From the IMG/VR virus record IMGVR_UViG_3300035698_029580: 64,000 nt of DNA. The stretch is one strand, 5' to 3'. The notes under the pieces were generated by a model that saw only the letters and a list, made by a program, of their open reading frames with translations, made no database searches and was not told where the DNA came from. Source of the stretch: a virus (taxonomy: Duplodnaviria; Caudoviricetes). The first letter of the stretch is position 1. Every line of letters begins with the position of its first letter. Below, piece by piece: positions 20,340 to 63,731 of the stretch. A program made the translations under genes and the position numbers.

Positions 20340-20373
20340 TTTTCCAGCATTATACTCATTTTTCCTATAAGTT
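20340..20373 (+). promoter_or_regulatory. dispersed copy of the TTTTCCAGCATTA early promoter
   Basis: exact 13-mer plus TAAGTT at the same spacing. Confidence 0.75.
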
Positions 20374-21732: not shown

Positions 21733-21852
21733 TTTAATTTCTCCAAAAAATATATTCTTATTATATCATTATATGGTTATTTTTAAAATAGTAAAGGAAA
21801 AAACCTTTAAAAATAGAAATAACTGTAAGGATTGCCCTATAAAGGAAGAATT

Positions 21853-23679
21853 ATGGTTAAACTAGAACAAGGTACTCATACTACTAATAATATGCCTATT
21901 GTTTATCTCTCTGGGCAAACATATCCTATTCGCAAGTATTTAGGTCGGGCTGGGATAGGATTTACTTGGTATGGAGCTAGAAAAATTTGGTGGATGTACA
22001 AAGAAAAATTTAATAATGATAAATTAGAACAATTGAAAAAATTAGGGGTGGATGTATCAGGGTATAATACTTCTTCAATTGCTCCAGAAGGTGCCCCAGA
22101 TGCTCCAGAAGGCAATAAAGTTGTTCCGGAGGGCAATCAGACTATTCCAAAAATAAATCCTTCACAAGAAGAACCTGTGCCTGAAGTAACAAATAAGACA
22201 GATATTGATGAACGCATTGGAAATTCTTATGATCGTGTTCCTGGTGAAAGGTACATGGGATTTAAAGTTAAAACTAACATTTATTCTACTGAATTTAATT
22301 TAAATTTAGAAGGACAAGAAGTTCCTGTAAAAGTTGTATTTGATAGGTCGTACATAAAGGGTAGGCGTAAAATACCAAAATATAGATATAATTTGTTTTA
22401 TAATGGCAATCCTGCATGGAGAGGATCTGTCAATGCTCCTGGTCCTTGGGGAAGTTACAATGAAGATAAGTTGGCATTAGAAATTCCTGAAAAAATTCAA
22501 TCATGGTTGGATAATAATCCCAAGCAGAGTATATCTAGAAATCTTAAATATTTAATTTTAGAAGGAGAAAGAGAACCTGAGTTAACAAAATGGTTAGAAG
22601 AATTTGGTGATATTTATAACGATGAAAAAGCTAAAGAATTTTGGGAACAAAAATTTCCAAAGAAATATATTCATTTAGATGACCCGAGTTATGAAGGTGA
22701 TTATTCTATTAGATTTTCAGATATGGGAGGGGCAATTTACGCATATACTGATATTAATCATGAACTATCTCCTCATTCTCAACATATTTTACGTATACAC
22801 GTAGAACCTCAAGTTCATACTTTTGAAGATTTAAATAAGTTTATAGACGAACAAATAAAAGAGAATAACGAAGAAATACAATCTAAATATTTGAAATATT
22901 TAAAATCTTTTCCATATAAAGAAGAAGAAGAAGAACAGAGTCGAGGACAAATGGATAAAGTAGTTTCTATGATAGGGAAAAATTATGATATTCAATTTTT
23001 CAAAAATAAACTCATAGAATTGGGATATATTCGTCCAAGTAAGAAAGTAAAAAAAGAGTTAAGAACACCAGGATTTGTGCCTCAAGAAGAGATTAAGTGG
23101 GTTTTAGAAAGCAAAAAAATAGTAAATGATGCGTACGCATATACTCAAAGTCCAGATCAATTTTATAGCACAATAGCATATTGGTTACATAGGAAAGTAA
23201 AAAATATTTCTTCTTGGACGGATATGATGCTTAATGATGCTATAAGACATTGGTATAATTTAGCAAAAAGATATGGTTATAATATTAGTGAAGAAAATGT
23301 AGAAAATTATTTTAATAGAATAGCAAGTGAACTTTATAAAGATTTGTTTTACAAAGAACCTCCTAAAACTGTATGGGAAAATTATAAAGATTTTTATGAA
23401 GGAGGACAAGGAAATCAATCAAGACGCAATACTGTTTCTAAAGAAAAATCTTTGGAGGACTTTATTAATTTTGCTATTTCTCTGGGAGTAGATAGATTAT
23501 CAGTCTTATCAAATCCTAAATCTGTATATAGACAATTATCTTTAAAATTACATCCTGATTTAAATCCTAATGACCCAGAAGCAGAGCAAAAATTTATAAG
23601 GCTAAGTGAGTTATATAATAAATTGCCAACTGAGGTAATTAGAGCAAATAATTGGTATGGAAGAATAAAAAGGTCTTAA
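21853..23679 (+). CDS. large protein with a C-terminal DnaJ (J) domain and a terminal NWY motif
   Basis: YRQLSLKLHPDLNP...AEQKFIRLSELY; ends ANNWYGRIKRS. Confidence 0.8.
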   Translation: MVKLEQGTHTTNNMPIVYLSGQTYPIRKYLGRAGIGFTWYGARKIWWMYKEKFNNDKLEQLKKLGVDVSGYNTSSIAPEGAPDAPEGNKVVPEGNQTIPKINPSQEEPVPEVTNKTDIDERIGNSYDRVPGERYMGFKVKTNIYSTEFNLNLEGQEVPVKVVFDRSYIKGRRKIPKYRYNLFYNGNPAWRGSVNAPGPWGSYNEDKLALEIPEKIQSWLDNNPKQSISRNLKYLILEGEREPELTKWLEEFGDIYNDEKAKEFWEQKFPKKYIHLDDPSYEGDYSIRFSDMGGAIYAYTDINHELSPHSQHILRIHVEPQVHTFEDLNKFIDEQIKENNEEIQSKYLKYLKSFPYKEEEEEQSRGQMDKVVSMIGKNYDIQFFKNKLIELGYIRPSKKVKKELRTPGFVPQEEIKWVLESKKIVNDAYAYTQSPDQFYSTIAYWLHRKVKNISSWTDMMLNDAIRHWYNLAKRYGYNISEENVENYFNRIASELYKDLFYKEPPKTVWENYKDFYEGGQGNQSRRNTVSKEKSLEDFINFAISLGVDRLSVLSNPKSVYRQLSLKLHPDLNPNDPEAEQKFIRLSELYNKLPTEVIRANNWYGRIKRS

Positions 23680-23681: not shown

Positions 23682-25049
23682 ATGGGTTGGTATTCTTTAA
23701 AAAAAATATCTCAAGACACATTAGGAGCAGAACCTCTTGAAGAGAAATTTGAAATAGCAGAAGAATATATTCCTTATTTGAAAAAAAAATTAGATAAATT
23801 ACAAAAAAGAGCTTTAAAATTAGAAGTAGAACCACCCCAAATGATGTTGTCTGAACCATATAAAAAGAAATTTAAAGGAAGAACAAAGGAAGCACCTGAC
23901 TATGAGGTTGTGTTCAGAATTGTAACTATAAGTGGCAAAGCTCCGGTTTTAGGAGGATGGCAATTAGCTGGAAGAGTAGTTCATACTCCAGAAGGTAATA
24001 TGTTAAGAACCGCTCCTGGTATCACTGTTCCTGATATTTACAGAACAAATCCACCTATATGTGAACATTGCTGTCAGAACAGACAAAGAAATGATACCTT
24101 TTTAGTTGTTAATGAAAAGGGAGAATATAAACAAGTTGGTAGTTCTTGTTTGGCAGATTTCTTAGGTCATCCAGATCCAAAACAATATGCTAATTATGCT
24201 CAATATCTTTCGGAATTTAGAGAATTAGCTTTTGGATATGAAGGTAAAGATATTAATGATGAAATGGAAGGTTGGGGAAGACAAGGACAAATAACTTTTG
24301 CACCTGTGTCTATTGTTTCTTTAGCCTTAGCTCTTGTTAAAAAAGGTGGTTATCTTTCTAGAACAAAAGCAGATGAATTGTCATTGTCAGGACGACCTGT
24401 TTCTTCAACGGCTGATACTATGACTCAATTTTTATTTCCTAGTCCTAGTTTTGATCCATGGAAAGAATATAATATAACGATTACAGATCAAGATAGAGAG
24501 TTAGCAGAAAAAATAATTGAATGGGCTATAGAACAAGGTAATAAACCAAATCCTTCTCAATATATGTGGAATTTATCTGTGGCTGCTAGAGGTTCTGCTT
24601 CAACAAGAGAACTTGGAATATTAGCTAGTGCTGTTCCCTCTTATCATAGAATGATGGAGAAGAAATTAGAAATAGAAGAAAAGAAAAAAAGCGGAGAATT
24701 AAAAGAAAGTAATTTTATCGGGGAAAAAGGAGATAAAATAATTGCTAAAGTAAAATTTACAGGACAATCAACTTCTGATGGGAATTATGGAACTACTTTT
24801 ATAAGTAGATTTATAGATACTAATGGTAATCGTTTTACATGGTTTGCCAGTAATCAATTACCGGATATAGAAGAAAATGGAGAATTTAAACAAATAGATC
24901 CTGGTATGGAGTTTGTTATCTTTGGAACAGTAAAAGATCATAATACATGGAAGGATATGAGATCTACTATTTTAACTCGTTGTAAAATTCTTACTGATGA
25001 AAAACAAATAAAAAATTATAACAAAAAGGCTACTATTAGTTTATTATGA
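23682..25049 (+). CDS. MxWY-tagged protein with a Zn-binding motif and C-terminal OB-fold-like region
   Basis: start MGWYSLKKISQ; CEHC...VGSSCL; GTVKDH...TILTRC. Confidence 0.75.
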   Translation: MGWYSLKKISQDTLGAEPLEEKFEIAEEYIPYLKKKLDKLQKRALKLEVEPPQMMLSEPYKKKFKGRTKEAPDYEVVFRIVTISGKAPVLGGWQLAGRVVHTPEGNMLRTAPGITVPDIYRTNPPICEHCCQNRQRNDTFLVVNEKGEYKQVGSSCLADFLGHPDPKQYANYAQYLSEFRELAFGYEGKDINDEMEGWGRQGQITFAPVSIVSLALALVKKGGYLSRTKADELSLSGRPVSSTADTMTQFLFPSPSFDPWKEYNITITDQDRELAEKIIEWAIEQGNKPNPSQYMWNLSVAARGSASTRELGILASAVPSYHRMMEKKLEIEEKKKSGELKESNFIGEKGDKIIAKVKFTGQSTSDGNYGTTFISRFIDTNGNRFTWFASNQLPDIEENGEFKQIDPGMEFVIFGTVKDHNTWKDMRSTILTRCKILTDEKQIKNYNKKATISLL

Positions 25050-26071
25050 ACTGGTATTCATTTCTAAAATTTGCTCAGATTTGGAACATTGACTCAGATG
25101 GATCTTTTTCTGATGAATTAGAAAAATTTTATGAGTTAGAATACAAACATTCTATGATTAGTCAACGTCCGTGGAGAGGATTAGGACAAAGAAAAGAAAA
25201 TATTTTAAATGGATTAGAAAAAGAATTATGGGATACTGGAGAAAATTTAAGAATACCTTTATTGCAAACGTTTGAGACATGGCTCAATAATCATGCTTTA
25301 ATGGATCCTGGTCTTTGGGCTCAACAAAGAGCAGATGACGATTATGAACATATAGAAGAACTTGGAGAAGATTCTACTATGCATGGTATATTAGATGAAT
25401 ATATGAGATATAAAAATGAAAATGGAGCATGGTATAATCCGTATAAAGGTCCAAATTGGGATCAAGCAAAAAGTGAATTATTTCAAGAAATAATGAAAAA
25501 TAAAAACAATTTTCCTTCATTAGGTCCTTTGTGGCAGTATATTAAAGAATATCAAAAAGAATATTTATTAAATATTCTAGAAGAAGATGGCTTGCAAGAA
25601 GTTAATAGAAATTTTGGCTTTAATTTTAAATCTGAAGAAGAAGTAGAAAATAATATAGATAAGATAATTGAATCTACTATGGGTGTAGATGATTTTATAG
25701 ATACTCATTCTAATTTTTTTGAAACACTGGAAAATATTAGGGTAAATATGAGACAATTTATCCACGAAATATATCAAAATCTTATATTTCCTGGATGGTC
25801 TGAATATTGGAAAAGTCAAGGGATAGAACAAACTAGAAAAAATATTGAAATTATTTATGAAAAATTAAAATCTTCTAATAATAGTATTCCATCATTAAAA
25901 GCAGGAATTAATGCTGCTTTACATGCTAGTCATCAAACCGGAGAAATGATTGAATATTTAGAACAATATGCTAATGAATATATAGACCCAGCTTTACTGA
26001 GGGAATTATCTGAAGGTAATTTTGTTGAAGAATGGAATGAAGAATTAAGAAAAATCGGAGTTGAAATATGA
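25046..26071 (+). CDS. MNWY-tagged hypothetical protein
   Basis: starts MNWYSFLKFAQ. Confidence 0.8.
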   Translation: MNWYSFLKFAQIWNIDSDGSFSDELEKFYELEYKHSMISQRPWRGLGQRKENILNGLEKELWDTGENLRIPLLQTFETWLNNHALMDPGLWAQQRADDDYEHIEELGEDSTMHGILDEYMRYKNENGAWYNPYKGPNWDQAKSELFQEIMKNKNNFPSLGPLWQYIKEYQKEYLLNILEEDGLQEVNRNFGFNFKSEEEVENNIDKIIESTMGVDDFIDTHSNFFETLENIRVNMRQFIHEIYQNLIFPGWSEYWKSQGIEQTRKNIEIIYEKLKSSNNSIPSLKAGINAALHASHQTGEMIEYLEQYANEYIDPALLRELSEGNFVEEWNEELRKIGVEI

Positions 26072-26565
26072 ATTGGTATAAAAAATTAAAATTAGCTCAA
26101 TCAGGTGAATATTGGATAGACGAGTCTGGTAATGTTCTTGGTGCAGATGGAGATACAGGTGATTACAATCATGAAGGACATGTTATAGAGAATCTTTTAG
26201 CAGAATATGATATTGAATATTATGAAGATTTTGAGAATATGAGTTTAGATAAATTAATTGAATTAGGTATGTCTCAAGATGAAATAAATACATTAACTGG
26301 CAAGATGGATCCAAGAGAGTATGCTATGAAAAATTGGGGATGGGCAAGAGTTCAAGGTGATAATATAGAAGTCTGGAATTTAGGTGGTGACATGATTAAT
26401 ACAATAGCAAATGGTTTGTTTGAAATATATGACGAATCAGTTAAGAATGAAATATTTAATTTGTATTTACATTCTAATGGGAAATGGTATAATAATTTAC
26501 CGTGGGAATTTTTTAATAGTGGAAAAATAAATAAATTGAGAGATTATCAGTTTGTTGGTTGGTAA
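26068..26565 (+). CDS. MNWY-tagged hypothetical protein
   Basis: starts MNWYKKLKLAQ. Confidence 0.8.
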   Translation: MNWYKKLKLAQSGEYWIDESGNVLGADGDTGDYNHEGHVIENLLAEYDIEYYEDFENMSLDKLIELGMSQDEINTLTGKMDPREYAMKNWGWARVQGDNIEVWNLGGDMINTIANGLFEIYDESVKNEIFNLYLHSNGKWYNNLPWEFFNSGKINKLRDYQFVGW

Positions 26566-44083: not shown

Positions 44084-44094
44084 TATAAAACAAA

Positions 44095-49706: not shown

Positions 49707-49970
49707 ATGGAAAATCATGTACAATTAAACAAGGATAGATATAAAATGACACCCGAACAGCGTGATTATTTGGAGCGGGCGGCGAAGATGGGGACGTTTA
49801 TGCTAGACCAACCAGGGAGTATATGGATTGGAGCAGCACTACGCGACGAGCTTGGTTACATCAAGGATCAAACGATAGTTGAATGGTCTCCGGGGGGGCA
49901 CCAGTACCGCCTTACCCCTGCAGGTCGTATAGCATTGGAAAACGAGACAGAAAGTGAAAAGGACAATTAA
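49707..49970 (+). CDS. small winged-helix-like hypothetical protein with higher GC
   Basis: L...GYI...YRLTPAGR; AAGGAG RBS. Confidence 0.65.
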   Translation: MENHVQLNKDRYKMTPEQRDYLERAAKMGTFMLDQPGSIWIGAALRDELGYIKDQTIVEWSPGGHQYRLTPAGRIALENETESEKDN

Positions 49971-49971
49971 A

Positions 49972-51021: not shown

Positions 51022-51031
51022 GGTAATAATT

Positions 51032-51136
51032 ATGAAAATTAGAAATGGTTTTGTATCTAATAGTAGTTCTACTGCATTTGTTATAGAGAATCGAACAAAT
51101 GACACAAAATATCTACTAAATTTTGTGAGGCATTGA
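51032..51136 (+). CDS. 34-aa GFVSNSS-leader peptide #1, below the ORF-track cutoff
   Basis: MKIRNGFVSNSSSTAFVIENRTNDTKYLLNFVRH*; GAGG RBS. Confidence 0.7.
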   Translation: MKIRNGFVSNSSSTAFVIENRTNDTKYLLNFVRH

Positions 51137-51146
51137 GGTAAATTAA

Positions 51147-51380
51147 ATGTGTGAAACATGGTATAAAAGTTATTGCTCTAAATGTAATACTATTAATTGG
51201 ATTTGCAATGGAGACACATCAGATTTATCAGGTGTAGACATTGATGGATATAAATGCTGGAAATGTGGAAATATAAAATATTTTGGAGATGAAGAACAAT
51301 ATGAAATTGAGAGAAATATTAATGAGTGGACAAATAAAGAAGATATTTATTGGGAGTTAGGATTAGAATTTCCAAAGTAA
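51147..51380 (+). CDS. Zn-ribbon protein, paralog of 38113-38352
   Basis: WYKSYCSKCNTINW...CWKC. Confidence 0.75.
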   Translation: MCETWYKSYCSKCNTINWICNGDTSDLSGVDIDGYKCWKCGNIKYFGDEEQYEIERNINEWTNKEDIYWELGLEFPK

Positions 51381-51392
51381 AAAGGAATAATC

Positions 51393-51740
51393 ATGAAAAT
51401 TAGAAATGGTTTCGTATCAAATAGTAGTTCTACCGCATTTATTATTACTAATGATTCTCGAGAAGTAAAAACTCTTGTAGATTTTGTTACAGAAAACCCT
51501 CAATTAATAGAAAAGTTTAAAGAACAATATGGGTGGGATAAAGATGATGATCGTTTTTCTCAAGGAAATTTAATAGTTTCTGCAGAGGAAAATAATATAG
51601 AATTTCCTCCTGGGGAAAATAAATATTGTGTTTTTGGAGATGAACAAGACACTCTTATTGGTCAGGTATTTGATTATATTTTACGAGATGGTGGAAATTC
51701 TGAAAGTTTTGGTTGGAGATTTTGTGAATATTTGAGGTGA
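51393..51740 (+). CDS. GFVSNSS-leader protein #2
   Basis: starts MKIRNGFVSNSSSTAFII. Confidence 0.85.
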   Translation: MKIRNGFVSNSSSTAFIITNDSREVKTLVDFVTENPQLIEKFKEQYGWDKDDDRFSQGNLIVSAEENNIEFPPGENKYCVFGDEQDTLIGQVFDYILRDGGNSESFGWRFCEYLR

Positions 51741-51744
51741 TATT

Positions 51745-52113
51745 ATGAAAATCAGAAATGGATTTGTTTCAAATAGTAGTTCTTCTAGTTTTATGATTAG
51801 TAAATCTGTTCTTTCTCAAGAACAGATAAGTGCTATTCATAACCATATGAATTATGCAAAAAATAATTTTCCAAATATGGTTGATAAATATTCTGGGAAA
51901 AATCAATATATTTGGTCATGGAATATTTTAGAAAATGATGAGCATATGTTTGGATTTGTTGATATGAATAACTTTGATATGAGGTATTTTTTAGAAAAAA
52001 TTGACATACTCGATAAGGATATTATTCTTAAGAGAGTATATGGCAATACATACGGAATGTCTTATCACGAAAAGATAAGTTTTATTACCAAAGAACTAAA
52101 AAAAGTTGATTAA
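51745..52113 (+). CDS. GFVSNSS-leader protein #3
   Basis: starts MKIRNGFVSNSSSSSFMI; body paralogous to #6. Confidence 0.85.
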   Translation: MKIRNGFVSNSSSSSFMISKSVLSQEQISAIHNHMNYAKNNFPNMVDKYSGKNQYIWSWNILENDEHMFGFVDMNNFDMRYFLEKIDILDKDIILKRVYGNTYGMSYHEKISFITKELKKVD

Positions 52114-52143
52114 CAATTATTTTAAATATTAGAAAGTGAAAAA

Positions 52144-52794
52144 ATGTTTAAAAAGATAAAATTATTACTAGTAATTTTTTTATTTTCTCTTCCTTCTATG
52201 GCTCTTACTGTTTCTGATGGACAATATTTTGAGACATTAGAATTCTACAACAATGATGTTGTTGACGTTTTAGGGGGAACAATAGACAACTTGACCCTCT
52301 ATGAACAAAGTCTTGCTAATGTAATAAATACAGAAGGAGATTTTCTTTCTGATGGAGCTATATGGGAAATAAATGCTTTTGATAATTCTCACATAAGTTT
52401 ATCAGGTGGCAATATTTATGAGATGAATTTATATGGGGATAGCATTACTGATGTTATAGGTGGCAGAGTAACCCTTCTAAATGTAAGTGGAAATGCAGAA
52501 TTATATTTATCTGCAGGATTATACAGAGGAACAGTGTTGGATTTAAAAGACGACACAGCACAAATTCACATGTATTGTACAGATTATAGTTTTAATCAAT
52601 TATTCCAACAGTTTAGTTTATCAGGAACATGGTCTAATGGAGATAGATTTTATATAGGTGTTGATAATGATACTTATAATAATATAAATTTTCACGTTAT
52701 AGAAAGCAATGATATTCCAGAGCCCATTATATTGTGTTTTCTTATTTTAGGAATTATAACAATTTTACAAATGGATAAATATCATGAAATTTAG
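52144..52794 (+). CDS. PEP-CTERM sorting-domain protein
   Basis: signal peptide, repeated xxSGG beta motifs, C-terminal IPEP plus TM helix. Confidence 0.8.
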   Translation: MFKKIKLLLVIFLFSLPSMALTVSDGQYFETLEFYNNDVVDVLGGTIDNLTLYEQSLANVINTEGDFLSDGAIWEINAFDNSHISLSGGNIYEMNLYGDSITDVIGGRVTLLNVSGNAELYLSAGLYRGTVLDLKDDTAQIHMYCTDYSFNQLFQQFSLSGTWSNGDRFYIGVDNDTYNNINFHVIESNDIPEPIILCFLILGIITILQMDKYHEI

Positions 52795-53161
52795 AAATGG
52801 ATTTGTATCAAATAGTAGTTCTAGTAGTTTTCTTATAGTTGGAGTTGAAGACGAAAATTTAGTGGAAAAATTAAAAGCTGCTTCTTGTGGAGATATGTCA
52901 GAACGATATGTGGAATCAGATGGTAGTATACGTTATGAGACTATGGAACATGGAGTAATACATGCGGGATTGATCAATTTTTATGGAAGTTATATTCTTG
53001 AAGATTGTTATTTATCTGGAATGCCCATAGAAGATTTATTGGAAACAATGAATTTAGCAGAAATTAGGTTGCGTTTTCAAAAATGTGTTAAAGAAAAATA
53101 CAATATAAATATAGATATGTCTGAAATATGTCTACATTATGGCGAAGTGTCTGATGAATAA
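52784..53161 (+). CDS. GFVSNSS-leader protein #4
   Basis: starts MKFRNGFVSNSSSSSFLIVG. Confidence 0.85.
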   Translation: MKFRNGFVSNSSSSSFLIVGVEDENLVEKLKAASCGDMSERYVESDGSIRYETMEHGVIHAGLINFYGSYILEDCYLSGMPIEDLLETMNLAEIRLRFQKCVKEKYNINIDMSEICLHYGEVSDE

Positions 53162-53181
53162 TTATTTAATAGGAGAAAAAA

Positions 53182-53640
53182 ATGAAAATTAGAAATGGTT
53201 TTGTAAGTAATAGTAGTTCTTCTTCCTTTGTTATTATTGGTCATCAAATAAAAATGGGAGGTAATTATGAAAAAATTTGTCGTATTTTTTTACCAGAAGA
53301 TTTTATTGAAAAAGAAATGGATAGTTGGGATTATAATAAAATGGAGGATAAGCATCAGAAAGAAAATTTTTGGGCAGAGATTTTTTATGAGAATTTAAGT
53401 GATATAAAAAATGAATTTGTGTGCTATTCATCATATAGTATACTCGGACATAGTGAAGATTGGGAGTTTTTTGGAAAACTATTATATTATAAATATGACG
53501 ATCCAGGAATTTATGATGATATTGAAGTGAAGGCTCCTCTTTCTGAAATTATTGAGGGCATAAGAAAAGAAGTTGAGAGATTGGGAATGCAAGACCAAGT
53601 AAGTGAAATAATGATTTATAGTGGAGTTAAATCAGATTAA
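53182..53640 (+). CDS. GFVSNSS-leader protein #5
   Basis: starts MKIRNGFVSNSSSSSFVIIG. Confidence 0.85.
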   Translation: MKIRNGFVSNSSSSSFVIIGHQIKMGGNYEKICRIFLPEDFIEKEMDSWDYNKMEDKHQKENFWAEIFYENLSDIKNEFVCYSSYSILGHSEDWEFFGKLLYYKYDDPGIYDDIEVKAPLSEIIEGIRKEVERLGMQDQVSEIMIYSGVKSD

Positions 53641-53641
53641 A

Positions 53642-53935
53642 ATGAAAATTAGAAATGGTTTTGTTTCAAATAGCAGTTCTTCTAGTTTTGTTATTAAAAA
53701 ATATGTTTTAAGTAAAAAACAAATAGATGCTATTTATGATCATATAAATTATGCAAAAAATAATTTTTCAGAAATGGAAGAAACAAGTGATTTAAATGAT
53801 GGATCTGCATGGGTAATAGTAGAAGGTGAAAAAAAAATATATTGCAGCACATTTATGAATAATTTTGATTTACATGAGTTTTTAATAAAAATAGGTGTTG
53901 ATGATAAAGATATTCGTGACTTGGAAGTGTTTTAA
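53642..53935 (+). CDS. GFVSNSS-leader protein #6 (start corrected)
   Basis: starts MKIRNGFVSNSSSSSFVIK. Confidence 0.85.
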   Translation: MKIRNGFVSNSSSSSFVIKKYVLSKKQIDAIYDHINYAKNNFSEMEETSDLNDGSAWVIVEGEKKIYCSTFMNNFDLHEFLIKIGVDDKDIRDLEVF

Positions 53936-53951
53936 TCTAAAGGAGAAATCA

Positions 53952-54299
53952 ATGAAATTTAGACAAGGTTTTGTATTAAATAGTGGTACAACTAGGGTTG
54001 ATGTTTATGGGACTATTATAAAGGCTGAAGATATGGAAGAAATTCTTGTAAAAAAAAATATTGTACAAAAAAATTCTGAAGGTGATCGTGATATATATGA
54101 TTTTCTTAATGACTTAACAGAAAAAGAAAAAATAGTTTGGGATCATCAAGAAGAACCTGAGGGAGAATATTATATTGGATTAAAAATAACAGAAATGGAA
54201 GACAATGAAACTCTTGACCAATTTAAAAAACGAATAGGAAACAAAATAGAAGAAATATTCGGTGAAAAATTATATGTTGAATTAATTCTTTCCACTTAA
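53952..54299 (+). CDS. GFVSNSS-leader protein #7 with a degenerate leader (start corrected)
   Basis: starts MKFRQGFVLNSGTTRV; AAGGAG RBS; body paralogous to #8 and #9. Confidence 0.85.
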   Translation: MKFRQGFVLNSGTTRVDVYGTIIKAEDMEEILVKKNIVQKNSEGDRDIYDFLNDLTEKEKIVWDHQEEPEGEYYIGLKITEMEDNETLDQFKKRIGNKIEEIFGEKLYVELILST

Positions 54300-54321
54300 T
54301 CATTGTTAAAGGAGATTTAAA

Positions 54322-54690
54322 ATGAAATTTAGACAAGGATTTGTATCAAACAGTAGTACCACGAGCTTTTGTATTTGTGGAATTAGTACAAATGAAGAAC
54401 AGTTAGAAGATTGGTTAAAAGATAAAGTTTCCGAAGAGGAGAAAGAAGAAGATGATTATGAGGTATATGATATAGTCGAAGAACTTTGTGACAAAGAAGG
54501 TCTTTCAGTGCATGCGGAACCCGATAGTTATTATTCTTATTGGATAGGACTTGATATACAAAAATTGGATGATAATGAAACGTTGAAAGATTTTAAAAAC
54601 AAAACAAAAGAAAAACTTAAAAAAATATTTGGAGATAATATTGATAAAAAAATCATTAATATTATTGAAAAAGCTTGGCATGATGGTTAA
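54322..54690 (+). CDS. GFVSNSS-leader protein #8
   Basis: starts MKFRQGFVSNSSTTSFCICGI. Confidence 0.85.
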   Translation: MKFRQGFVSNSSTTSFCICGISTNEEQLEDWLKDKVSEEEKEEDDYEVYDIVEELCDKEGLSVHAEPDSYYSYWIGLDIQKLDDNETLKDFKNKTKEKLKKIFGDNIDKKIINIIEKAWHDG

Positions 54691-54720
54691 AACATATGAT
54701 ATTCTTTAAAGGAGAAATTA

Positions 54721-55071
54721 ATGAAATTTAGACAAGGTTTTGTATCAAACAGTAGTACCACGAGCTTTTGTATTTGTGGAATTTGTCTAGATAGAAAAAA
54801 TATGGAAGAATTAATAGAAGAAAAAAATGTTGATGGAAAAGATATAAATGAGAGATTGTTGGAAAAACTTTGTAAGGCAGAGGGACTTGCCAGTATTGCT
54901 GATCCAGAAGATGAGTATTATTATATTGGAATTAATGTAGAAGATATGGATGAGGATAAGACAATAAGAGATGTTAAAAAAGAAGCAAAGGAAAAAATAA
55001 AAAAATTGTTCGGAGATAATGCTGATAAACATAATGTTAGAGTCATTACTGATGGTTGGTATAATGGTTGA
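54721..55071 (+). CDS. GFVSNSS-leader protein #9
   Basis: starts MKFRQGFVSNSSTTSFCICGI. Confidence 0.85.
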   Translation: MKFRQGFVSNSSTTSFCICGICLDRKNMEELIEEKNVDGKDINERLLEKLCKAEGLASIADPEDEYYYIGINVEDMDEDKTIRDVKKEAKEKIKKLFGDNADKHNVRVITDGWYNG

Positions 55072-55121: not shown

Positions 55122-55817
55122 ATGAGTGGAAAAGTGCAAGTTCATCATTTAATTATTTTGGACAAAAGTAGTTCAATGCTAGAAGTTTGTAGTGAAACTA
55201 TTGATGGATGTAATAAACAATTTGATGTAATTCGTAAAATGTCAGAAGAAAATCCAGAACAAGAACATTTTGTTTCTATGGTCATATTTAGCTATTCTCA
55301 TAAAATAGATATGGAAACAATATGGATGAAAAAATCAGATGAAGTGGAAAATATTAATGAAGAAAGTTATGTTCCTCAGGGATACACGGCTTTATTTGAT
55401 GCCATAGGTAAAGGCGTGACAAAACTACAAACAGAAATACAGGAACAATTAAATAATAGAGGTGCTAGAGTTGTTGTTACAATATTGACAGATGGTTATG
55501 AAAATAATTCTCAAGAATTTACTGGTAAGAAGATTAAATCTTTAATAGATGAACATCAAAAAGGTGGTTTATGGACAATTACGATGGCTGGATGTACTGA
55601 TGATGTATTCAATGTAGCAGATAATCTTAATATTTGCAGAGGAAATGTTCTTAAATATGATATGGGAGCAGTAGGAACTACTAATGCTTTTGCTAAAATG
55701 GCAAAGAGTCGTTGCATGTATTGTTCTTCCATAGGGACAGATGTAGAATTAAAAGCGACATCAAGTTATTATTCTCAAGATGAAGAAAAGAAAGATGAAG
55801 AAAAGAAAGATGATTAA
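55122..55817 (+). CDS. von Willebrand factor A domain protein
   Basis: DKSSS MIDAS, GYTALFDAIG, ILTDGYENNSQE. Confidence 0.9.
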   Translation: MSGKVQVHHLIILDKSSSMLEVCSETIDGCNKQFDVIRKMSEENPEQEHFVSMVIFSYSHKIDMETIWMKKSDEVENINEESYVPQGYTALFDAIGKGVTKLQTEIQEQLNNRGARVVVTILTDGYENNSQEFTGKKIKSLIDEHQKGGLWTITMAGCTDDVFNVADNLNICRGNVLKYDMGAVGTTNAFAKMAKSRCMYCSSIGTDVELKATSSYYSQDEEKKDEEKKDD

Positions 55818-56074
55818 AATTTTCTAATTGGACATCTAAAGTGGGGGTCCTGGAATATAATTTCTAGGACCTTTCCACTTTTTTTACATCTTTTTTTAAC
55901 TGTTTTTTGTGGAGGTCTAGTTGTTTTTGTCATAAAGTAGATTTTATCAACATGAGGACAACTTTTACATATTTTTGGTCTAATATCTAGAAGTTTAATT
56001 CTTTTGTCTTTTAGTATTGGTTTAGCACTTTTATTTTTTATTGCAGAAGCTCTTTTTCCACAGCCACATCCCAT
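55814..56074 (-). CDS. small basic Cys-rich protein
   Basis: MGCGCGK...CKSCP...C...CP. Confidence 0.7.
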   Translation of the reverse strand: MGCGCGKRASAIKNKSAKPILKDKRIKLLDIRPKICKSCPHVDKIYFMTKTTRPPQKTVKKRCKKSGKVLEIIFQDPHFRCPIRKF

Positions 56075-56850
56075 TATCTAACTCCTCTCATTTTTTGGAT
56101 TAGGTTATTTCTTCTAATTCTTCCTACTTGATGATACCATTTTGAATCTACCATTTCATCGGCAGCTTTTTGGAAATCTCTTCTTATTAAAGCTTGTCTA
56201 AATCTTTTAAACTGTCTTAATCTATTTGGTCCCATAGCAAATGCCATATCAATAATAACTTGTTGAACAGCATCATCATATGTTTCAAAATTGGGTAAAA
56301 AAGAATGTGCTATATCGGAGGCTTCGAAAAAGGTATATTCAAATAATTTATTTATTTGTTCGTCTGTAAGACCAACTTTTCCATTAATAATGTCATTATA
56401 ATTTAGTCCAAAACTTTCTATTTTTTGTTTAGCATCTGGTCTATTTAACATATATCCTATTCCTATTGTTTTGTTTCCTAATGGACCGGGATATACAAAA
56501 TTTCTTCTTCCCTCATGCTGAGATATCATATCTCTAGTTTTTTGAATAAAATTATTTTGATCTGTATTTTTTCTTTCTACGGAAGTTCCTTGGGGATTTT
56601 CTTGTGTTGCAGGAATATTTTGTTGTGTTATTTCTTGTGTTTGTTGAGGGGTTGTATTTTCTTGTTTTTTTATTTCTTGGACACCTTGTATTACTGTTTG
56701 GGGAGATTGTTTAAAAAGATCTTTAACTTCTAGAATTCCTATTCCCCATAGACCTGCCAAACCTAATAAAGCTGTTAGTCCAGTCATTTGAACAAATCTA
56801 TTCCATCTAAACTCTTCTTCTGCTATTTTTGTTTGATTGTACCAATTCAT
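56074..56850 (-). CDS. T4-type lysozyme (GH24) with MNWY tag and N-terminal hydrophobic segment
   Basis: HEG...Y...G..TIGIG, DMAF.MG, AADEMVDSKWYHQVG. Confidence 0.85.
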   Translation of the reverse strand: MNWYNQTKIAEEEFRWNRFVQMTGLTALLGLAGLWGIGILEVKDLFKQSPQTVIQGVQEIKKQENTTPQQTQEITQQNIPATQENPQGTSVERKNTDQNNFIQKTRDMISQHEGRRNFVYPGPLGNKTIGIGYMLNRPDAKQKIESFGLNYNDIINGKVGLTDEQINKLFEYTFFEASDIAHSFLPNFETYDDAVQQVIIDMAFAMGPNRLRQFKRFRQALIRRDFQKAADEMVDSKWYHQVGRIRRNNLIQKMRGVR

Positions 56851-56851
56851 A

Positions 56852-57214
56852 TTAAATTGTTGTTTCTCCTATATATCCACCTTCGGCAGAAAAAGTTATT
56901 ATTTTAATATTATTCCCAAATTCTTTTTTTAATTTATTAATAATAACATTGGGAATATCCCAATACCATTCATAAGGAGTCATAATGGATACCTCCATAG
57001 TGTTCGGATCATATCTACCTCGGAATTTTTTTTCGAATGCTTTTTCTAAGCCTCCTTCCATCATATTTCCATGTCCTTCAATATACCATCCTTCTTCGAC
57101 TTTAAAATTACTACCATCGGGATTACTCATCCATAACATATTTTCATTACCAGAGCCAACTCCAGAATGCCCTATATCTCCGTAATTTTTTTGTGCTAAT
57201 TTATACCAATTCAT
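56852..57214 (-). CDS. MNWY-tagged protein (Y..IGH...GRYD family; start corrected)
   Basis: starts MNWYKLAQ; paralog of 60122 and 60498. Confidence 0.8.
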   Translation of the reverse strand: MNWYKLAQKNYGDIGHSGVGSGNENMLWMSNPDGSNFKVEEGWYIEGHGNMMEGGLEKAFEKKFRGRYDPNTMEVSIMTPYEWYWDIPNVIINKLKKEFGNNIKIITFSAEGGYIGETTI

Positions 57215-57855
57215 TTTCTTATCCATAATGTTAAATCGTCTTTAACCTCTTCCCAGTGAGGTATATAAATTTTTTCTATTTCTTTCCATTCTGAATCAAG
57301 AAGATTATAAAATTGGTCATTAGCTGTACATCCTTTCCATTCTCCCACCAAAATTAGTTTATTTCCTTCAAAAAATGCTAATGCTTCATATGCCATGGGA
57401 CTACCGCAGGGAGGCCAAACCATCATTAATGTATCAAAATGACCATATTTTTCAATAGCATCTAAATGATCCATTTTCTCTATGTCTGTAAATCTTTTAC
57501 TCTCAGGCTTATAATATTTTTCATTTTGTCTTTCTATAACACCTAAATCTGTAGCTGTTACAGATATTCCTTCGTCTCTCATTAATTTAGCCCAGAGCCC
57601 ATACCCTGACCCTATTTCTAATACATTGCCTTGTTCTACGAAAATTTTTATTTTTTCGATTGCTTCTTTATCTGGGACTCCCCATCCATATTCTTTTATA
57701 TATCTGTTTCTTCTCAACCATGGACGAGTAAGATCAGAGTTCCAAAAGTTAAGTTCTTCTTCTGAAGGTTCAGATGCATATTCTTTACCTTCAGGCCCAA
57801 ATTTATTTAAATCTTCATAAATATCAGCTATTTTTTTATTTTTATACCAATTCAT
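57211..57855 (-). CDS. MNWY-tagged class I SAM methyltransferase
   Basis: VLEIGSGYGLWA, ATD, WPP, VGE..GCTA. Confidence 0.85.
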   Translation of the reverse strand: MNWYKNKKIADIYEDLNKFGPEGKEYASEPSEEELNFWNSDLTRPWLRRNRYIKEYGWGVPDKEAIEKIKIFVEQGNVLEIGSGYGLWAKLMRDEGISVTATDLGVIERQNEKYYKPESKRFTDIEKMDHLDAIEKYGHFDTLMMVWPPCGSPMAYEALAFFEGNKLILVGEWKGCTANDQFYNLLDSEWKEIEKIYIPHWEEVKDDLTLWIRK

Positions 57856-58876
57856 ATTCTACCTCTCCTATTAAATCTACCGTCTTTCCACTCCATGTTC
57901 TCCATTCCCCTAATGCCGATACTTTATATCCTAGTGATCCAGGTATAGATCTGAATTCTAATATAGCAATTTGGTCTTCTGGAACACTATATAAACCTTG
58001 TTCATCACTAAATGCAAATAATCCATATTCTGGACCACCTGCCTGTTCTCTCATCCACGCCCATGTATGATATGCTTTAAATTTTCTATAAACTTTTTCT
58101 TTGTTAGTTAATATTTTTTTAAATTTTCTGTATGTTGGAGGAATTCTATTCCCTGTTTCTGATTCTTCTATAGGTCCCCAATTTTCTTTTTTATTTTTAT
58201 TAAATTCTTTTACTGTTGATGGGAATAATGTTGCACTCGTGATTTCATAGTCAGAATTAACATAATTTATTATCTCTTCTACGGTTCCTGTCCCTACTGC
58301 GTGTTTTTGAGCTTGTATCCATTCATTTACCCAAGGTTTTTTTGCTCCGATTCCATTTTGAGCTTGCATTATCATATCTTCTATAGATAATTCTCCAAAC
58401 ATGACCTTTCTGCCCTCAATCAAAGTTCTATATATATCTTGAGATACTTTTAAATTTTCTGTGAAACTAATTGTATCACTACTTCCTCCTCCTAGCCCTC
58501 TTCCTCCTTTTTGAGATAGATCATCTCTAGTTCTTAATTGATCTTTTATCACTTCATTTTTAGATGTTGTTACATGATATAAAGTTTCAGGGAGAGGAAG
58601 GAGTTGTCCATGACCAGGAATTTTATATGAATTCTCTTGATATCTATCTTGAGTTAAATCATAACCTAAATTAAATGCTTCTGATGGACTTATTTTTCCA
58701 GTTGCTAAAGATTTAGATATCTCACTATCCCACTCTTTTTGTTTTGTTCTAATATTATCAAATATTATAGTTTTCTGTTCATCGGATAAATTATCATAAT
58801 CATGAGGATAGTTTCTACCAGAATAATCATTTCTAGAAATTTGTAATATATTTTGTGCTAATTTATACCAATTCAT
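57842..58876 (-). CDS. MNWY-tagged protein with ADP-ribosyltransferase-like motifs
   Basis: LYHVT...ISFTE...GEWR. Confidence 0.55.
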   Translation of the reverse strand: MNWYKLAQNILQISRNDYSGRNYPHDYDNLSDEQKTIIFDNIRTKQKEWDSEISKSLATGKISPSEAFNLGYDLTQDRYQENSYKIPGHGQLLPLPETLYHVTTSKNEVIKDQLRTRDDLSQKGGRGLGGGSSDTISFTENLKVSQDIYRTLIEGRKVMFGELSIEDMIMQAQNGIGAKKPWVNEWIQAQKHAVGTGTVEEIINYVNSDYEITSATLFPSTVKEFNKNKKENWGPIEESETGNRIPPTYRKFKKILTNKEKVYRKFKAYHTWAWMREQAGGPEYGLFAFSDEQGLYSVPEDQIAILEFRSIPGSLGYKVSALGEWRTWSGKTVDLIGEVEYELV

Positions 58877-58879
58877 TAT

Positions 58880-59608
58880 TTATCCATAATTAATTTTTTT
58901 AACAGGAAGATTGTTTGTCTCAATATAATTAATCATCTTTTTTAACCTGTCTATATAACTGCTTAATTGACTATAACTTCTTCCATAGTCATACATTGCA
59001 GATTGTCCAGGAGTTTTTTCTTCAGTTGGTTCTTGGGTATAGGTATTTATTGTGAAATCATTGTCTTCTATATTTTTTATAGCAGATTTTAATTCATCTA
59101 TATTTAATGTCCCTCCATAGGGATCTAAATTACTCATTCCTTCATTTTGCAACAATTGTATCAATGCTACACTATTTGCATTTGCTATATTTATTTCTGG
59201 CAATTTTTCTAGATCTGTTGTGTTGTTTTCTTCAACTAATACTCTAGCAACATTTATGTCTCTTGCACCGGACTTATTTATTTCTAAAAATTTTAACTTA
59301 ATTAAACCCATTCTATTATTATTATATTGGTCTACTATATTTTTTATAATTCCACTTTTTATATTAGGATTTTCTAGATAAATATTAATTTGCCCAGTAG
59401 GAGCAAAAGTATCTCCAGAACTCATATCAGGATCAACATCTTGCCACCCAATACCTAATTTTTGTCCAATATTCATCTCATAAATTATAAACTTGGATAA
59501 ATCACTACAAACTTCTAATTTATTCATAGGTTGAGTTATTTTATCAGAGCCTTCAATCCAGAAGGTGACACTAGACTGTTTATAAAATGCTAATTTATAC
59601 CAATTCAT
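58880..59608 (-). CDS. MNWY-tagged hypothetical protein (start corrected)
   Basis: starts MNWYKLAF. Confidence 0.8.
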   Translation of the reverse strand: MNWYKLAFYKQSSVTFWIEGSDKITQPMNKLEVCSDLSKFIIYEMNIGQKLGIGWQDVDPDMSSGDTFAPTGQINIYLENPNIKSGIIKNIVDQYNNNRMGLIKLKFLEINKSGARDINVARVLVEENNTTDLEKLPEINIANANSVALIQLLQNEGMSNLDPYGGTLNIDELKSAIKNIEDNDFTINTYTQEPTEEKTPGQSAMYDYGRSYSQLSSYIDRLKKMINYIETNNLPVKKINYG

Positions 59609-60111
59609 TCGGGCCATACTCCAAATCTTCTTAAGAATTTTTCCATTTTATTACCTATTAAAATTTGTACAGGGCCAATATTTCCTTCAGAATAATAATC
59701 TCCTGGTTCTACACTTGGGTATCTATTGTCTGTTTCTCCCTGCCAATCACCCAAAGGACCCTCTTCTTCTTCTGGTCTATGTTCAAATTGATCTTCCCCT
59801 TCTTTTATAATAACTAACATACCATAACTTTTTAATTCATTAGGAGTTACGTCTCCCCATTTTTTATTTAACATTTTCATTACTGCGTATTGCATAGCAT
59901 TAACTGCTCTTTGTAATCCTTGTTTGTCTGTAGCATAAGTCACATCAACAGGATCAAACTCTATTCCTGCAGATTCATATTCTCCGGCATAAGAATCTGA
60001 AACAAAATCACCTGTATCAGGGATGAGTCCTATATCTTTTATGGAATCGTAGTTATTAATAGAGGTTCCGTGATAAAGAGTTCTGGATTTTGCTTTTTTA
60101 TACCAATTCAT
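59605..60111 (-). CDS. MNWY-tagged protein with ADP-ribosyltransferase/Tpt1-like motifs
   Basis: LYHGT....SI...GL.P...YAT. Confidence 0.6.
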   Translation of the reverse strand: MNWYKKAKSRTLYHGTSINNYDSIKDIGLIPDTGDFVSDSYAGEYESAGIEFDPVDVTYATDKQGLQRAVNAMQYAVMKMLNKKWGDVTPNELKSYGMLVIIKEGEDQFEHRPEEEEGPLGDWQGETDNRYPSVEPGDYYSEGNIGPVQILIGNKMEKFLRRFGVWPE

Positions 60112-60121
60112 TTATTCTTTT

Positions 60122-60496
60122 TCAATAAGTATATATTTGAGTTATGTTAGGGAATTTACTGTAGAGTTTATTTACTAAACGAGAAGGAACACCGCGGAAT
60201 GCATTTAATCCTTTTAAGGGTACAATTATACTTAATTTTCCAGTACTAGTTTCATATCTACCTTGGTATGTTCTACTAAAAGAAAAATTTTCATCATTAA
60301 AAACATAACCAAAAGCATCATCATGAGTGGGTTCTTCTTCTGTTTCTGGACGAACTGCTAGAATTCCATTGTAATATATCCAAAGATAATTATTTAGTGT
60401 GTCTTCGTCCTCAGTCAGTTTAGCATGACCAATATTAAGATAAGATGGTTTATCTAGTGTTTGTTGAGATAATATTGTTCTTTTATACCAATTCAT
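60122..60496 (-). CDS. MNWY-tagged protein (Y..IGH...GRY family)
   Basis: starts MNWYKRTILSQ; paralog of 60498. Confidence 0.8.
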   Translation of the reverse strand: MNWYKRTILSQQTLDKPSYLNIGHAKLTEDEDTLNNYLWIYYNGILAVRPETEEEPTHDDAFGYVFNDENFSFSRTYQGRYETSTGKLSIIVPLKGLNAFRGVPSRLVNKLYSKFPNITQIYTY

Positions 60497-60497
60497 T

Positions 60498-60881
60498 TTA
60501 ATTATAATAAAATATTTGTTTTATGTCGGGAAATTTTTTATAAAGTTTACTAATTAAAGCATTAGGTGGTTCTCTATGTGCATTTACTCCGGTAACTGGT
60601 TTGACGACACTCAAATAACCTGTTACTGGATCAAATCTACCATTATATATATAATCACTATCTATGTTTGGGAATGCTTCTCTATGATGTTCTTTTCCTT
60701 TTTGTTCTTTAATAACATCTATTCTTCCATTTAAATATACCCACATATATCCCACATCTTTTCTGTCATAAGGATTTTGAATATTATGTACATTTCTTTT
60801 GTAACTTCTATGTCCTATCTCGAAATACATAGGTTGTTCTTCTAATTCTTGAGAATATATTATTCTTTTATACCAGTTCAT
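60498..60881 (-). CDS. MNWY-tagged protein (Y..IGH...GRF family)
   Basis: starts MNWYKRIIYSQ. Confidence 0.8.
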   Translation of the reverse strand: MNWYKRIIYSQELEEQPMYFEIGHRSYKRNVHNIQNPYDRKDVGYMWVYLNGRIDVIKEQKGKEHHREAFPNIDSDYIYNGRFDPVTGYLSVVKPVTGVNAHREPPNALISKLYKKFPDIKQIFYYN

Positions 60882-60951
60882 AATGTTTATTAGTAATTTT
60901 TTGTTAAATATCCTTCAAAATAGTCGATAAAACAATAGATAAGGAGATATT

Positions 60952-62288: not shown

Positions 62289-63059
62289 TTAGTCTCTTTT
62301 GTATGATGGAGGTAATGCATTTTTATGAGCAGATTTAGCTATTAATTCTTTTACCTTTTCTGTTGCTTCTTTAGAAACTTCATCTCGTAAACCCTTGAGA
62401 TAACGTAAGGTATTGTCTAAATCTTCATATGACAAACCTAATTCTTTTTCATCTGTTTGTCCTTTCCAAAGACCTGCACTGGGAACTTTTTCTATTATTT
62501 TAGAAGGTATATCAAGATATTTTGCCAATTGATAAATTTCTGTTTTGTAGTATTTTCCGATTGGTTCGATGTCAACTCCTCCATCACCAAATTTACTAAA
62601 ATAGCCGCATAAAATTTCTGATAGATTTCCTGTTCCTGCTACAAGAAATTTATATATTTCAGATTGGGCATACAAACATGTCATTCTTAATCTTGCTTTA
62701 ATATTTCCTATCTCTAATTTGGTCATTTTTATAGCTTTATTATATCCTTTTTCTTTGGTTGTTTTTATAAAATGACATTTTTTAAATTCATCTAATACAT
62801 TATTGAGTTGAATAATTGTATAATGTATATCTAACTTAGAAGCCACTAGTATAGCATCTTCTTTATCATTTAGATTAGAAAAACAAGGCATAATTAATGC
62901 CAATACTTTATCTTTTCCTACGGCTTCTTTAGCTAATGCTGCTACTACTGAACTATCAATACCTCCGCTTAAGCCAAGAACATAGCCTAAAGTTCCGGCA
63001 TTTTTACAATAATCTCTCATCCAAGAACTTATATTTTTTATTTCTTTTTGGTAGTCCAT
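62289..63059 (-). CDS. nadE: NH3-dependent NAD+ synthetase
   Basis: GLSGGIDS, NIKARLRM, GYFSKFGDG, PSAGLWKGQTDE. Confidence 0.95.
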   Translation of the reverse strand: MDYQKEIKNISSWMRDYCKNAGTLGYVLGLSGGIDSSVVAALAKEAVGKDKVLALIMPCFSNLNDKEDAILVASKLDIHYTIIQLNNVLDEFKKCHFIKTTKEKGYNKAIKMTKLEIGNIKARLRMTCLYAQSEIYKFLVAGTGNLSEILCGYFSKFGDGGVDIEPIGKYYKTEIYQLAKYLDIPSKIIEKVPSAGLWKGQTDEKELGLSYEDLDNTLRYLKGLRDEVSKEATEKVKELIAKSAHKNALPPSYKRD

Positions 63060-63062
63060 TCT

Positions 63063-63731
63063 TTACTTCCTTATACACTTATAAATATCAGTTTTTTCTT
63101 TTCTAATTATTTCAATATCAAAATAATCAGACAGTAAATCTTTGTATTCTTGTTCATCTATCCACCTGAATTCTGTAGCATGAGGTTTATATCCTTCTCT
63201 TATTTGAACATGATGAACCATATCATTAATAAGATAACTAATTTCGACAAATTTATTATTATCTATATCATATTTTTTTATTTTTGGCTTTTCAGACGGT
63301 TTTGAGTTAAAGGTATTAAAAACAAAAATGCCTTCACTTTTAATTTTGTCAGATAACATAGAAACTATTTCGTTATTAAGCCAATAATTAATTGCTTGTC
63401 TACAGAAAGCAATATCAAATAGTTCCCGTAGTTGTTTTTTTTTCATCATACAAAAACTACCATAAACAGAATCAATAGACACTCGTATATCTCGTATTTT
63501 TTTTTGATTATAAAATTTAGATGGTATCATTCTTATTTCTTGGTTAATCATAAAACAATAAGAAGCACCCCGATTTAAAGCTTCTTGTGTGGCTGCTCCG
63601 TTGCCACAACAAATATCTAAAAATGATTTTCCTTTATAATCTCCTGCTAAATCCATCATTTTAAATAAATTGTCTGGATTAATATATTTTTGATATATTT
63701 TTTCATATTCTTCATAAGATGGATATCTCAT
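63063..63731 (-). CDS. class I SAM-dependent methyltransferase
   Basis: FLDICCGNG, FDIAFCRQAINYW. Confidence 0.85.
   Translation of the reverse strand: MRYPSYEEYEKIYQKYINPDNLFKMMDLAGDYKGKSFLDICCGNGAATQEALNRGASYCFMINQEIRMIPSKFYNQKKIRDIRVSIDSVYGSFCMMKKKQLRELFDIAFCRQAINYWLNNEIVSMLSDKIKSEGIFVFNTFNSKPSEKPKIKKYDIDNNKFVEISYLINDMVHHVQIREGYKPHATEFRWIDEQEYKDLLSDYFDIEIIRKEKTDIYKCIRK

Follow-up and report, generated by a model that had tools for sequence, protein, structure and literature searches.

The window analysed here is the whole of a 64,000-nucleotide stretch of DNA (31% GC, phage-like) from a virus of the Caudoviricetes (Duplodnaviria; IMG/VR virus record IMGVR_UViG_3300035698_029580). On its minus strand, from 60881 down to 56074, lie eight consecutive genes whose products all open with MNWY(K/N), a short N-terminal peptide hereafter called the tag (Table 1). 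This run of MNWY-headed proteins was recorded by the first-pass annotation of the sequence and is borne out by the list of open reading frames (ORFs), in which the eight genes are tightly packed, no gap or overlap between them exceeding 14 nt. In a six-frame translation of the window the word MNWY occurs ten times, and all ten occurrences are ORF starts, against 0.01 genes expected to start M-N-W-[YF] from amino-acid frequencies (0.01-0.06 per genome for the genomes compared below). Eight of the ten words head the minus-strand run, and the remaining two begin genes at 25046 and 26068, which follow a gene with the variant start MGWYSLKKISQ at 23682.

Table 1. Tagged genes of the window and neighbouring features; minus-strand genes start at their higher coordinate
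Feature	Coordinates	Strand	Description
Tagged gene 1, MNWYKRIIYSQ	60498..60881	-	127 amino acids (aa), small-domain paralogue A; no Pfam, PHROG or Atlas lead
Tagged gene 2, MNWYKRTILSQ	60122..60496	-	124 aa, small-domain paralogue B
Tagged gene 3, MNWYKKAKS	59605..60111	-	168 aa, ADP-ribosyltransferase (ART) superfamily fold (predicted) from TLYHGT; H14, E135 invariant
Tagged gene 4, MNWYKLAF	58880..59608	-	242 aa, no function assigned; in-frame ATG 3 codons upstream at 59617 (MARM-NWYK)
Tagged gene 5, MNWYKLAQ	57842..58876	-	344 aa: helical N-terminal region, ART-fold domain (predicted) 89-344, C-terminal YELV
Tagged gene 6, MNWYKNKKIAD	57211..57855	-	214 aa, S-adenosylmethionine-dependent methyltransferase; family match from residue 47
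Tagged gene 7, MNWYKLAQ	56852..57214	-	120 aa, divergent third small-domain paralogue; in-frame upstream ATG at 57226 (MDKKM-NWYK)
Tagged gene 8, MNWYNQTKIAE	56074..56850	-	258 aa: tag, transmembrane helix ~22-40, Q/T/P-rich linker, GH24 lysozyme
Untagged Cys-rich ORF, last of the minus-strand block	55814..56074	-	86 aa; homologue in G001
Divergent intergenic region 5' of the tag cluster, presumed promoter region	60882..60951	.	70 bp; contains GAAGGATATTT
Three further consecutive tagged genes	23682..26565	+	MGWYSLKKISQ 23682-25049 (phrog_2319), MNWYSFLKFAQ 25046-26071, MNWYKKLKLAQ 26068-26565
J-domain protein, C-terminus NNWYGRIKRS (tag-like word)	21832..23679	+	directly upstream of the three tagged genes

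To place the tag in context, the window was compared with two IMG/VR relatives, G001 (122 kb, 44% GC) and G002 (548 kb, complete, 34% GC), and with the cultured Bacillus/Lysinibacillus phage G. G002 is syntenic with the window over 31-64 kb of the latter, and G001 encodes a tagged methyltransferase 44% identical to that of the window. The major capsid protein of G002 is 55% identical to gp27 of phage G, and hence the clade is one of phage-G-like megaphages. G002 was obtained by a 15-mer scan of IMG/VR in which the other matches were mostly single chance ones; neither the window's own sequence nor the codons of MNWYKLAQ gave a match when scanned as exact patterns against IMG/VR, and a tblastn search of the window's proteins against cultured phages gave none either. 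Six sequencing runs carry parts of the stretch, and these are salt-lake metagenomes, all of DNA, with no RNA run among them. No paper describing an MNWYK tag was found in the literature search, and the comparative papers on jumbo phages are silent on leaders of this kind.

An unbiased census of the tripeptides that follow the initiator methionine ranks NWY first in the window (10 genes) and in G002 (13), NWY and NWF together first in G001 (18), and KRL first in phage G (15). Altogether 11 genes are tagged in the window and 15-22 in each relative. Over 44 tags the tryptophan at position 3 is invariant (44/44), and N2 is kept in 41 and K5 in 31. The codons used for N, Y/F and K within the tag vary and track genome-wide usage in three genomes of 31-44% GC (in G001, for example, AAT 8 and AAC 10, with TAT 7, TAC 2, TTT 4 and TTC 5). 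Selection therefore acts on the peptide, since its synonymous codons match genome usage.

The tag is also separable from the proteins that carry it. The family of the 168-aa protein (gene 3) has 538 representatives at E <=1e-3; in its close and medium relatives MNWYK is followed by 3-12 linker residues, distant members start at TLYHGT, the first strand, and other lineages have different short leaders with K-x-A just before TLYHGT (YKLAK, YKIAK, EKIAK, IKKAR). Likewise, in the family of the 344-aa protein (gene 5) the pattern M[ND]WYK.[AS]Q is kept down to ~36% identity and is gone in the most distant members. In AlphaFold2 (AF2) models of these two proteins the predicted local distance difference test (pLDDT) score is below 50 at the tag, over residues 1-6 in the 168-aa model and residues 1-5 in the 344-aa one. 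Homologues in G001 keep the tag in altered form, with MNWFKKISS at the start of the counterpart of gene 4 and MNWFKFAN at the start of the methyltransferase orthologue. MNWY(K) is thus a portable, disordered tag, conserved as a peptide on unrelated folds, and not part of the cargo fold. The lack of a hydrophobic segment (mean Kyte-Doolittle >=1.6) in 40 of the 44 tagged proteins indicates that it is not a Sec, Tat or lipoprotein signal.

Proteins with additional domains keep the tag at their extreme N-terminus (G001_41503, 630 aa; G002_59285, 713 aa; P0059), and in two of them a second copy falls exactly at the junction before the downstream module (G001_41503, residue 307, MNWHKESQ; G002_59285, residue 596, TNWYKKSQLST). 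A few large proteins encoded directly upstream of tagged genes end in tag-like words (the J-domain protein of the window; G002_117563, ...NWYRKRISA; G002_114878, ...NWYKNKKQIGKYELV), and further internal or near-C-terminal words occur in G002_289118 (residue 742) and at the C-terminus of G001_22982. The J-domain protein of G001 (19626-20354) carries the tag MNWFKSAVRR at its N-terminus. Within the head module of G002, beside the terminase (32094-32828), one ORF starts MSNWFKNS and an ORF has the tag words ANWFKKAQNWFNKQRQS in tandem. A conserved 202-aa protein (window 31164-31772; G002 62566-63180; 45% identical) starts M(F/S)(Q/S)WY(D/E)KCMP and has internal NW(Y/F)N and GWYK words.

The identities proposed earlier for the lysozyme, the methyltransferase and the small domain are confirmed. 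The lysozyme (gene 8) matches Pfam PF00959 and the PHROG 'internal virion lysozyme motif', the methyltransferase (gene 6) matches PF13489 and phrog_19090, and the three paralogues of one small domain are related to one another (gene 1 versus gene 2, E 2e-20; gene 7 versus gene 2, E 7e-5). A word search gave no more than two close homologues of the small domain of gene 1. The claim of two ART-like proteins stands at the level of the fold, with no Pfam match for either protein. For the 168-aa protein (AF2 pLDDT 85) every top structural match is an ART, with Tpt1/KptA at Z 7.7, and for the 344-aa protein (pLDDT 88) residues 89-344 match KptA at Z 8.7 and ARTs make up nearly all of the 50 best matches among 48,161 chains. 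One of these 50 is the ART domain of a cyanophage pre-ejectosome. Invariant His and Glu residues are H14/E135 in the shorter protein and H101/E324 in the longer one, and from fold and conserved His/Glu together both are predicted members of the ADP-ribosyltransferase superfamily. Sequence-profile comparison of the 344-aa protein with the 168-aa ART family revealed no link beyond the tag. A second terminal motif was also noticed, C-terminal [YN]-E-L-V, for example in the 344-aa protein (window 57842-57856). Five proteins over the window, G001 and G002 end in ELV against ~0.4 by chance (loci in the relatives: G002 8639-9040 and 114878-116413; G001 43843-44391 and 40967-41713), three of the five are MNWY-tagged, and many homologues of the ART family (P0005-P0045) terminate in ...NELV.

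In the relatives the tagged cargo includes Tad6, two GNATs, a CCA-adding/HD enzyme, a 5'-nucleotidase-like protein, a P-loop kinase, a helix-turn-helix (HTH) protein, SLT and Hydrolase_2 cell-wall hydrolases and a J-domain protein. The Tad6-family protein, a type I Thoeris inhibitor, is encoded at G001 40555-40980 (L153:555-980), carries the tag MNWYKQAQ and matches Pfam PF25188 at E 4.5e-35. The ART family of the window also occurs inside proteins of 1.4-5.2 thousand aa beside PBECR5, PcfJ-like or ART-PolyVal domains. These large proteins are polyvalent proteins, a class described as being injected together with the DNA (PMC7824862, PMC5512222). The tagged proteins of the window have one domain each and so lie outside that class, which is defined by several effector domains. 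The repertoire of tagged cargo looks like typical injected-effector content.

The tagged cell-wall hydrolases share a single architecture of tag, true transmembrane (TM) helix, Q/P-rich linker and catalytic domain, and the catalytic domain belongs to a different, unrelated family in each genome: GH24 in the window (56074-56850), SLT in G002 (116946-117563) and Hydrolase_2 in G001 (96106-96810). This is non-orthologous displacement of an enzyme within a fixed frame. The helix of the GH24 protein (~22-40) has a hydropathy of 1.74 and is Gly/Ala-rich, a layout that may be that of a signal-anchor (SAR-type) endolysin acting in lysis or that of an enzyme of entry.

K-x-A/S, which closes most tags, is the part that would tie them to head assembly. 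Of the 44 tagged proteins, 30 have K-x-[AS] somewhere in their first 14 residues, as do 102 of 994 untagged ones (Fisher 1.6e-18). When each protein was scored genome-wide by its excess of K-x-A over its own composition, the top rank went to the head protease-scaffold polyprotein in G001 (38 sites against 13.7 expected, p 6e-8, 143 proteins) and in G002 (28 against 11.8, p 4e-5, 651 proteins), and to the head protease gp19 in phage G (8 against 2.4, 599 proteins). Portals and some other head-module proteins are enriched as well; no enrichment was seen in the major capsid protein, the decoration protein or the terminase. When the polyproteins of G001 and G002 are compared, ~12 K-x-A sites fall at conserved positions despite differing flanks, and both polyproteins start with the tag-like sequence MA(M/F)YK(R/T)AT. 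Furthermore, the major capsid gene of G002 is followed immediately downstream by four tagged genes of the same orientation. Through this sharing of K-x-A/S and the capsid-adjacent tagged genes of G002, the tag would be linked to head assembly only indirectly. As an observation on the polyprotein itself, that of G001 (58732-65652; L153/L154) apparently contains an intein-like insert, which begins at the Cys of a conserved ...GSSMGC motif in the protease domain (CFTPDMRVLMNDGTYRPI...).

Phage G provides a natural exchange of leaders. A search of its genome for ATGAAYTGGTAY found none at all, and at least 13-20 unrelated ORFs of phage G open with MKRL(I/V/M)K(K)(A/S), a leader for which no description was found in the literature searched. 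Head-region proteins with MKRLIKK-type leaders include gp13, gp17, gp38 and gp53, and further ORFs with the leader start at 73333, 147657, 178671 (minus strand), 207452, 244463, 245997, 258978, 388150 and 446712 of NC_023719. The profile of the window's ART family matches phage G proteins that open with MKRLIRKASRILYHGTS (E 8e-8) as well as gp53, which opens with MKRLVKAEQ... (E 1e-4), and an hhalign comparison of the window family with the phage G proteins gives 92% probability over the first 30 columns. At the junction, MNWYKKAKSR-TLYHGTS in the window corresponds to MKRLIRKASR-ILYHGTS in phage G. The same ART-fold cargo family therefore bears a different leader at the same position, which makes the MNWYK and MKRLIKK leaders positional equivalents. 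The two are alike in position, in length and in their K-x-A/S ending, and the phage G leader, like MNWYK, stands on many unrelated ORFs, including ART-fold cargo homologues, partly concentrated in the head region. They differ in the address word, which is KRLI in phage G and NWY here, and phage G can be cultivated.

The closest parallel to this anatomy is the capsid-targeting sequence (CTS) of phage T4, which is carried by internal proteins, namely IPI, IPII and IPIII, and by the Alt propeptide and removed by the prohead protease gp21; the address for the prohead core lies in its N-terminal residues and the gp21 cut site in its last ones (PMC9026906). Both the CTS and MNWYK are N-terminal peptides of ~10 residues on unrelated, non-essential proteins of effector type, an ADP-ribosyltransferase (predicted for MNWYK) among them. 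Both have a two-part layout (proposed for MNWYK) with a cut-site motif (putative for MNWYK) that is frequent in scaffold or core proteins, and in both systems the N-terminus of the protease itself resembles the motif. Because the anatomy of the tag parallels the CTS, we read the leader MNW(Y/F)K-x-(A/S)-(Q) as having two parts, a lineage-specific address word, MNW(Y/F), and a generic K-x-A/S, shared with the protease-scaffold and portal, that the head protease would cut. The leader would dock the tagged enzymes onto the protease-scaffold core while the prohead is being assembled, and the head maturation protease would cut at or near K-x-A/S and free the enzymes inside the capsid. They would then pass into the host along with the DNA and be active ahead of all phage gene expression, in roles that may include ADP-ribosylation, methylation, acetylation, anti-Thoeris activity and cell-wall cutting. 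The first-pass annotation had proposed MNWY as a portable packaging tag for a modular payload; this is partly supported, in that a portable peptide tag on unrelated folds and effector-like cargo are both found, with the packaging itself still a proposal. We give capsid cargo delivered with the DNA an even chance of being the right explanation, since each of its steps (docking, cutting, packaging, timing) is inferred. Somewhat more tentatively, phage-G-like megaphages may possess a general 'address-and-cut' code, in which a lineage word (MNWY/F here, MKRLI in phage G) and a universal K-x-A/S, which also marks the joints of fused modules, load dozens of interchangeable enzymes (ARTs, GNATs, methyltransferases, Tad6 and cell-wall hydrolases) for co-injection.

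Several observations weigh against delivery in the capsid. Cleavage after A/S(Q), as originally suggested, agrees with the consensus ending of the tag, yet [KR]-x-[AS] is absent from 12 of the 44 tags. The enrichment of K-x-A was measured in the relatives, and the head module of this genome lies outside the window; moreover, the protease domain has no Pfam or meaningful PDB sequence match and matches phrog_18299 only. Some of the cargo, namely the HTH protein, the P-loop kinase and the CCA-adding enzyme, is odd for head proteins. The TM helix that follows the tag in the hydrolases implies a predicted type II membrane protein with a cytoplasmic tag rather than a soluble capsid cargo, and their architecture would suit an enzyme of lysis or entry held in the membrane more readily than a head protein in solution. 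Only near-matches to a candidate late motif were found upstream of the tag clusters, GAAGGATATTT in the presumed promoter region of Table 1 being likewise only a near-match to the candidate late motif of G002. The particle proteome of phage G published in 2025 lists many replication proteins.

The tag may instead be a processing site only, at which a phage protease, of the head or another, cuts NW(Y/F)K-x-A/S and thereby releases modules from fused proteins or removes a short inhibitory propeptide, the products staying in the cytoplasm or membrane of the host. Tag words at internal module junctions and near C-termini (G002_59285, G001_41503, G002_289118, G002_117563, G002_114878, G001_22982 and the J-domain protein of the window) speak for this, as does the K-x-A common to tag and protease-scaffold, and TM-anchored hydrolases would stay functional after losing a cytoplasmic leader. 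However, a disordered N-terminal peptide of 8-11 residues would hardly inhibit such a variety of folds, and MNW(Y/F), which is strictly conserved, exceeds the generic K-x-A sites of the scaffold in length, suggesting a further role. Several tagged genes also sit in the head module, and we consider pure processing quite improbable. Alternatively, the tag could dock its carriers onto some other machine, such as an AAA+ unfoldase or protease (an N-degron for timed removal), an Hsp70/J-protein system, or a factor for sorting to a membrane or compartment. Leaders of a basic-hydrophobic kind, MKRLIKK and NWYK among them, look like chaperone or degron motifs, J-domain proteins bear tag words (NNWYGRIKRS at the C-terminus in the window, MNWF at the N-terminus in G001), some tagged proteins bear the second terminal motif [YN]ELV, and the TM-anchored hydrolases present the tag to the cytoplasm. 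We nonetheless find such a machine unlikely: 40 of the 44 tagged proteins have no hydrophobic segment, and a K-x-A enrichment specific to head-assembly proteins would be left unexplained. Two candidate partners can be discarded in this connection, as neither ClpP nor a J-domain protein is the universal partner or receptor, because ClpP is absent from the complete, tag-bearing G002 and no J-domain gene was found in G002 or phage G.

A last alternative places the conservation in the nucleic acid, as an element of translation initiation, or regards the common start as a functionless remnant of duplicated starts or recombination cassettes. The gene starts are indeed crowded, some of them with a weak Shine-Dalgarno sequence or none, and the tags at 57214 and 58876 are identical in their codons. 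Over the three genomes of 31-44% GC, though, the synonymous sites vary freely according to the usage of each, W is invariant in 44 of 44 tags, orthologues as little as 36-44% identical still carry tags although their linkers differ in length, tag words also occur internally and at C-termini, and phage G has a different peptide at the same position; we regard this explanation as extremely improbable.

Returning to the capsid-address reading, comparison with known systems shows what would be new in it. The T4 CTS, MKTYQEFIAE, is cut after (L/I)-x-E and has no sequence similarity to MNWYK-x-A/S. The T4 protease is of the gp21 type (Peptidase_S77), whereas here a PHROG 18299 domain is fused to a scaffold of 1.9-2.3 thousand aa with no Pfam match of the T4 type. 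The lineage is phage-G-like rather than T4, and no homology to the T4 CTS/gp21 system was found. In comparison with T4, the MNWYK system also has far more cargo, and its tag words stand at internal junctions and C-termini as well. Outside the T4 system, encapsulin cargo-loading peptides are short terminal peptides that route unrelated cargo into an HK97-fold shell, and they are usually C-terminal and uncleaved. The leaders of the capsid, scaffold and gp44 proteins of phage 80alpha are shared by several head proteins, cut by the host protease Prp and copy ribosomal protein L27. Neither the encapsulin peptides nor the 80alpha leaders resemble MNWYK in sequence. Many head and ejection proteins of phiKZ-like phages have N-terminal propeptides that are removed by the prohead protease, some of 20-24 residues (PMC10052503); in SPN3US, a member of this group, gp245 cuts after A-X-E (PMC10052503). 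Unlike MNWYK, these propeptides have only the cut motif in common among them and no address word, most are of 111-254 residues, and both the protease family and the motif differ from those here. Polyvalent proteins of phages and conjugative elements (PMC5512222) share the repertoire of the tagged cargo, with ART, GNAT, methyltransferase, peptidoglycan hydrolase and RNA-repair domains, but as domains on one giant polypeptide, whereas here the proteins are separate and small, with one leader each. The concept thus has its precedent in T4, and the MNWYK system is set apart by its lineage, protease, tag sequence, larger cargo sets and use at module joints.

Regulatory motifs and one further tag complete the survey. 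Scans for sigma-70 promoters and terminators showed no excess. Upstream motifs of G002 fall into a class TTTTCCAGACAAATG...TATAGAATA (core 8-mer TTCCAGAC, 52 matches, ~45 upstream-like), which mostly precedes small genes at 155-230 kb, a sigma-70-like class CTTGAAAGTGAAAG-N-GGTATAAT (core 8-mer AAGTGAAA, 72 matches, ~40 promoter-like), and a class [AG]AGG[AT]TTT before head and tail genes (26 against 4.7 expected). Elsewhere in the window, within 49954-55071, a radical-SAM-like gene is followed by genes that all open with a different common N-terminal tag, MKFRQGFVSNSS.

Even if the capsid reading is wrong, MNWY(K) would be a tag for sorting or processing that is specific to the virus and shared by dozens of unrelated proteins, of a kind for which no description was found in the literature searched. 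If the tag is a capsid address, the first eight residues of a protein would reveal whether it belongs to the pre-packaged, first-acting arsenal of an uncultured megaphage clade, including anti-defence proteins and enzymes without an assigned function, and a minimal peptide would be at hand with which foreign proteins could be loaded into capsids of very large size. As phage G can be grown, its equivalent leader opens the idea to direct testing. Should the 'address-and-cut' code exist, it would be a natural means of protein delivery, programmable and on a much larger scale than the CTS system of T4.

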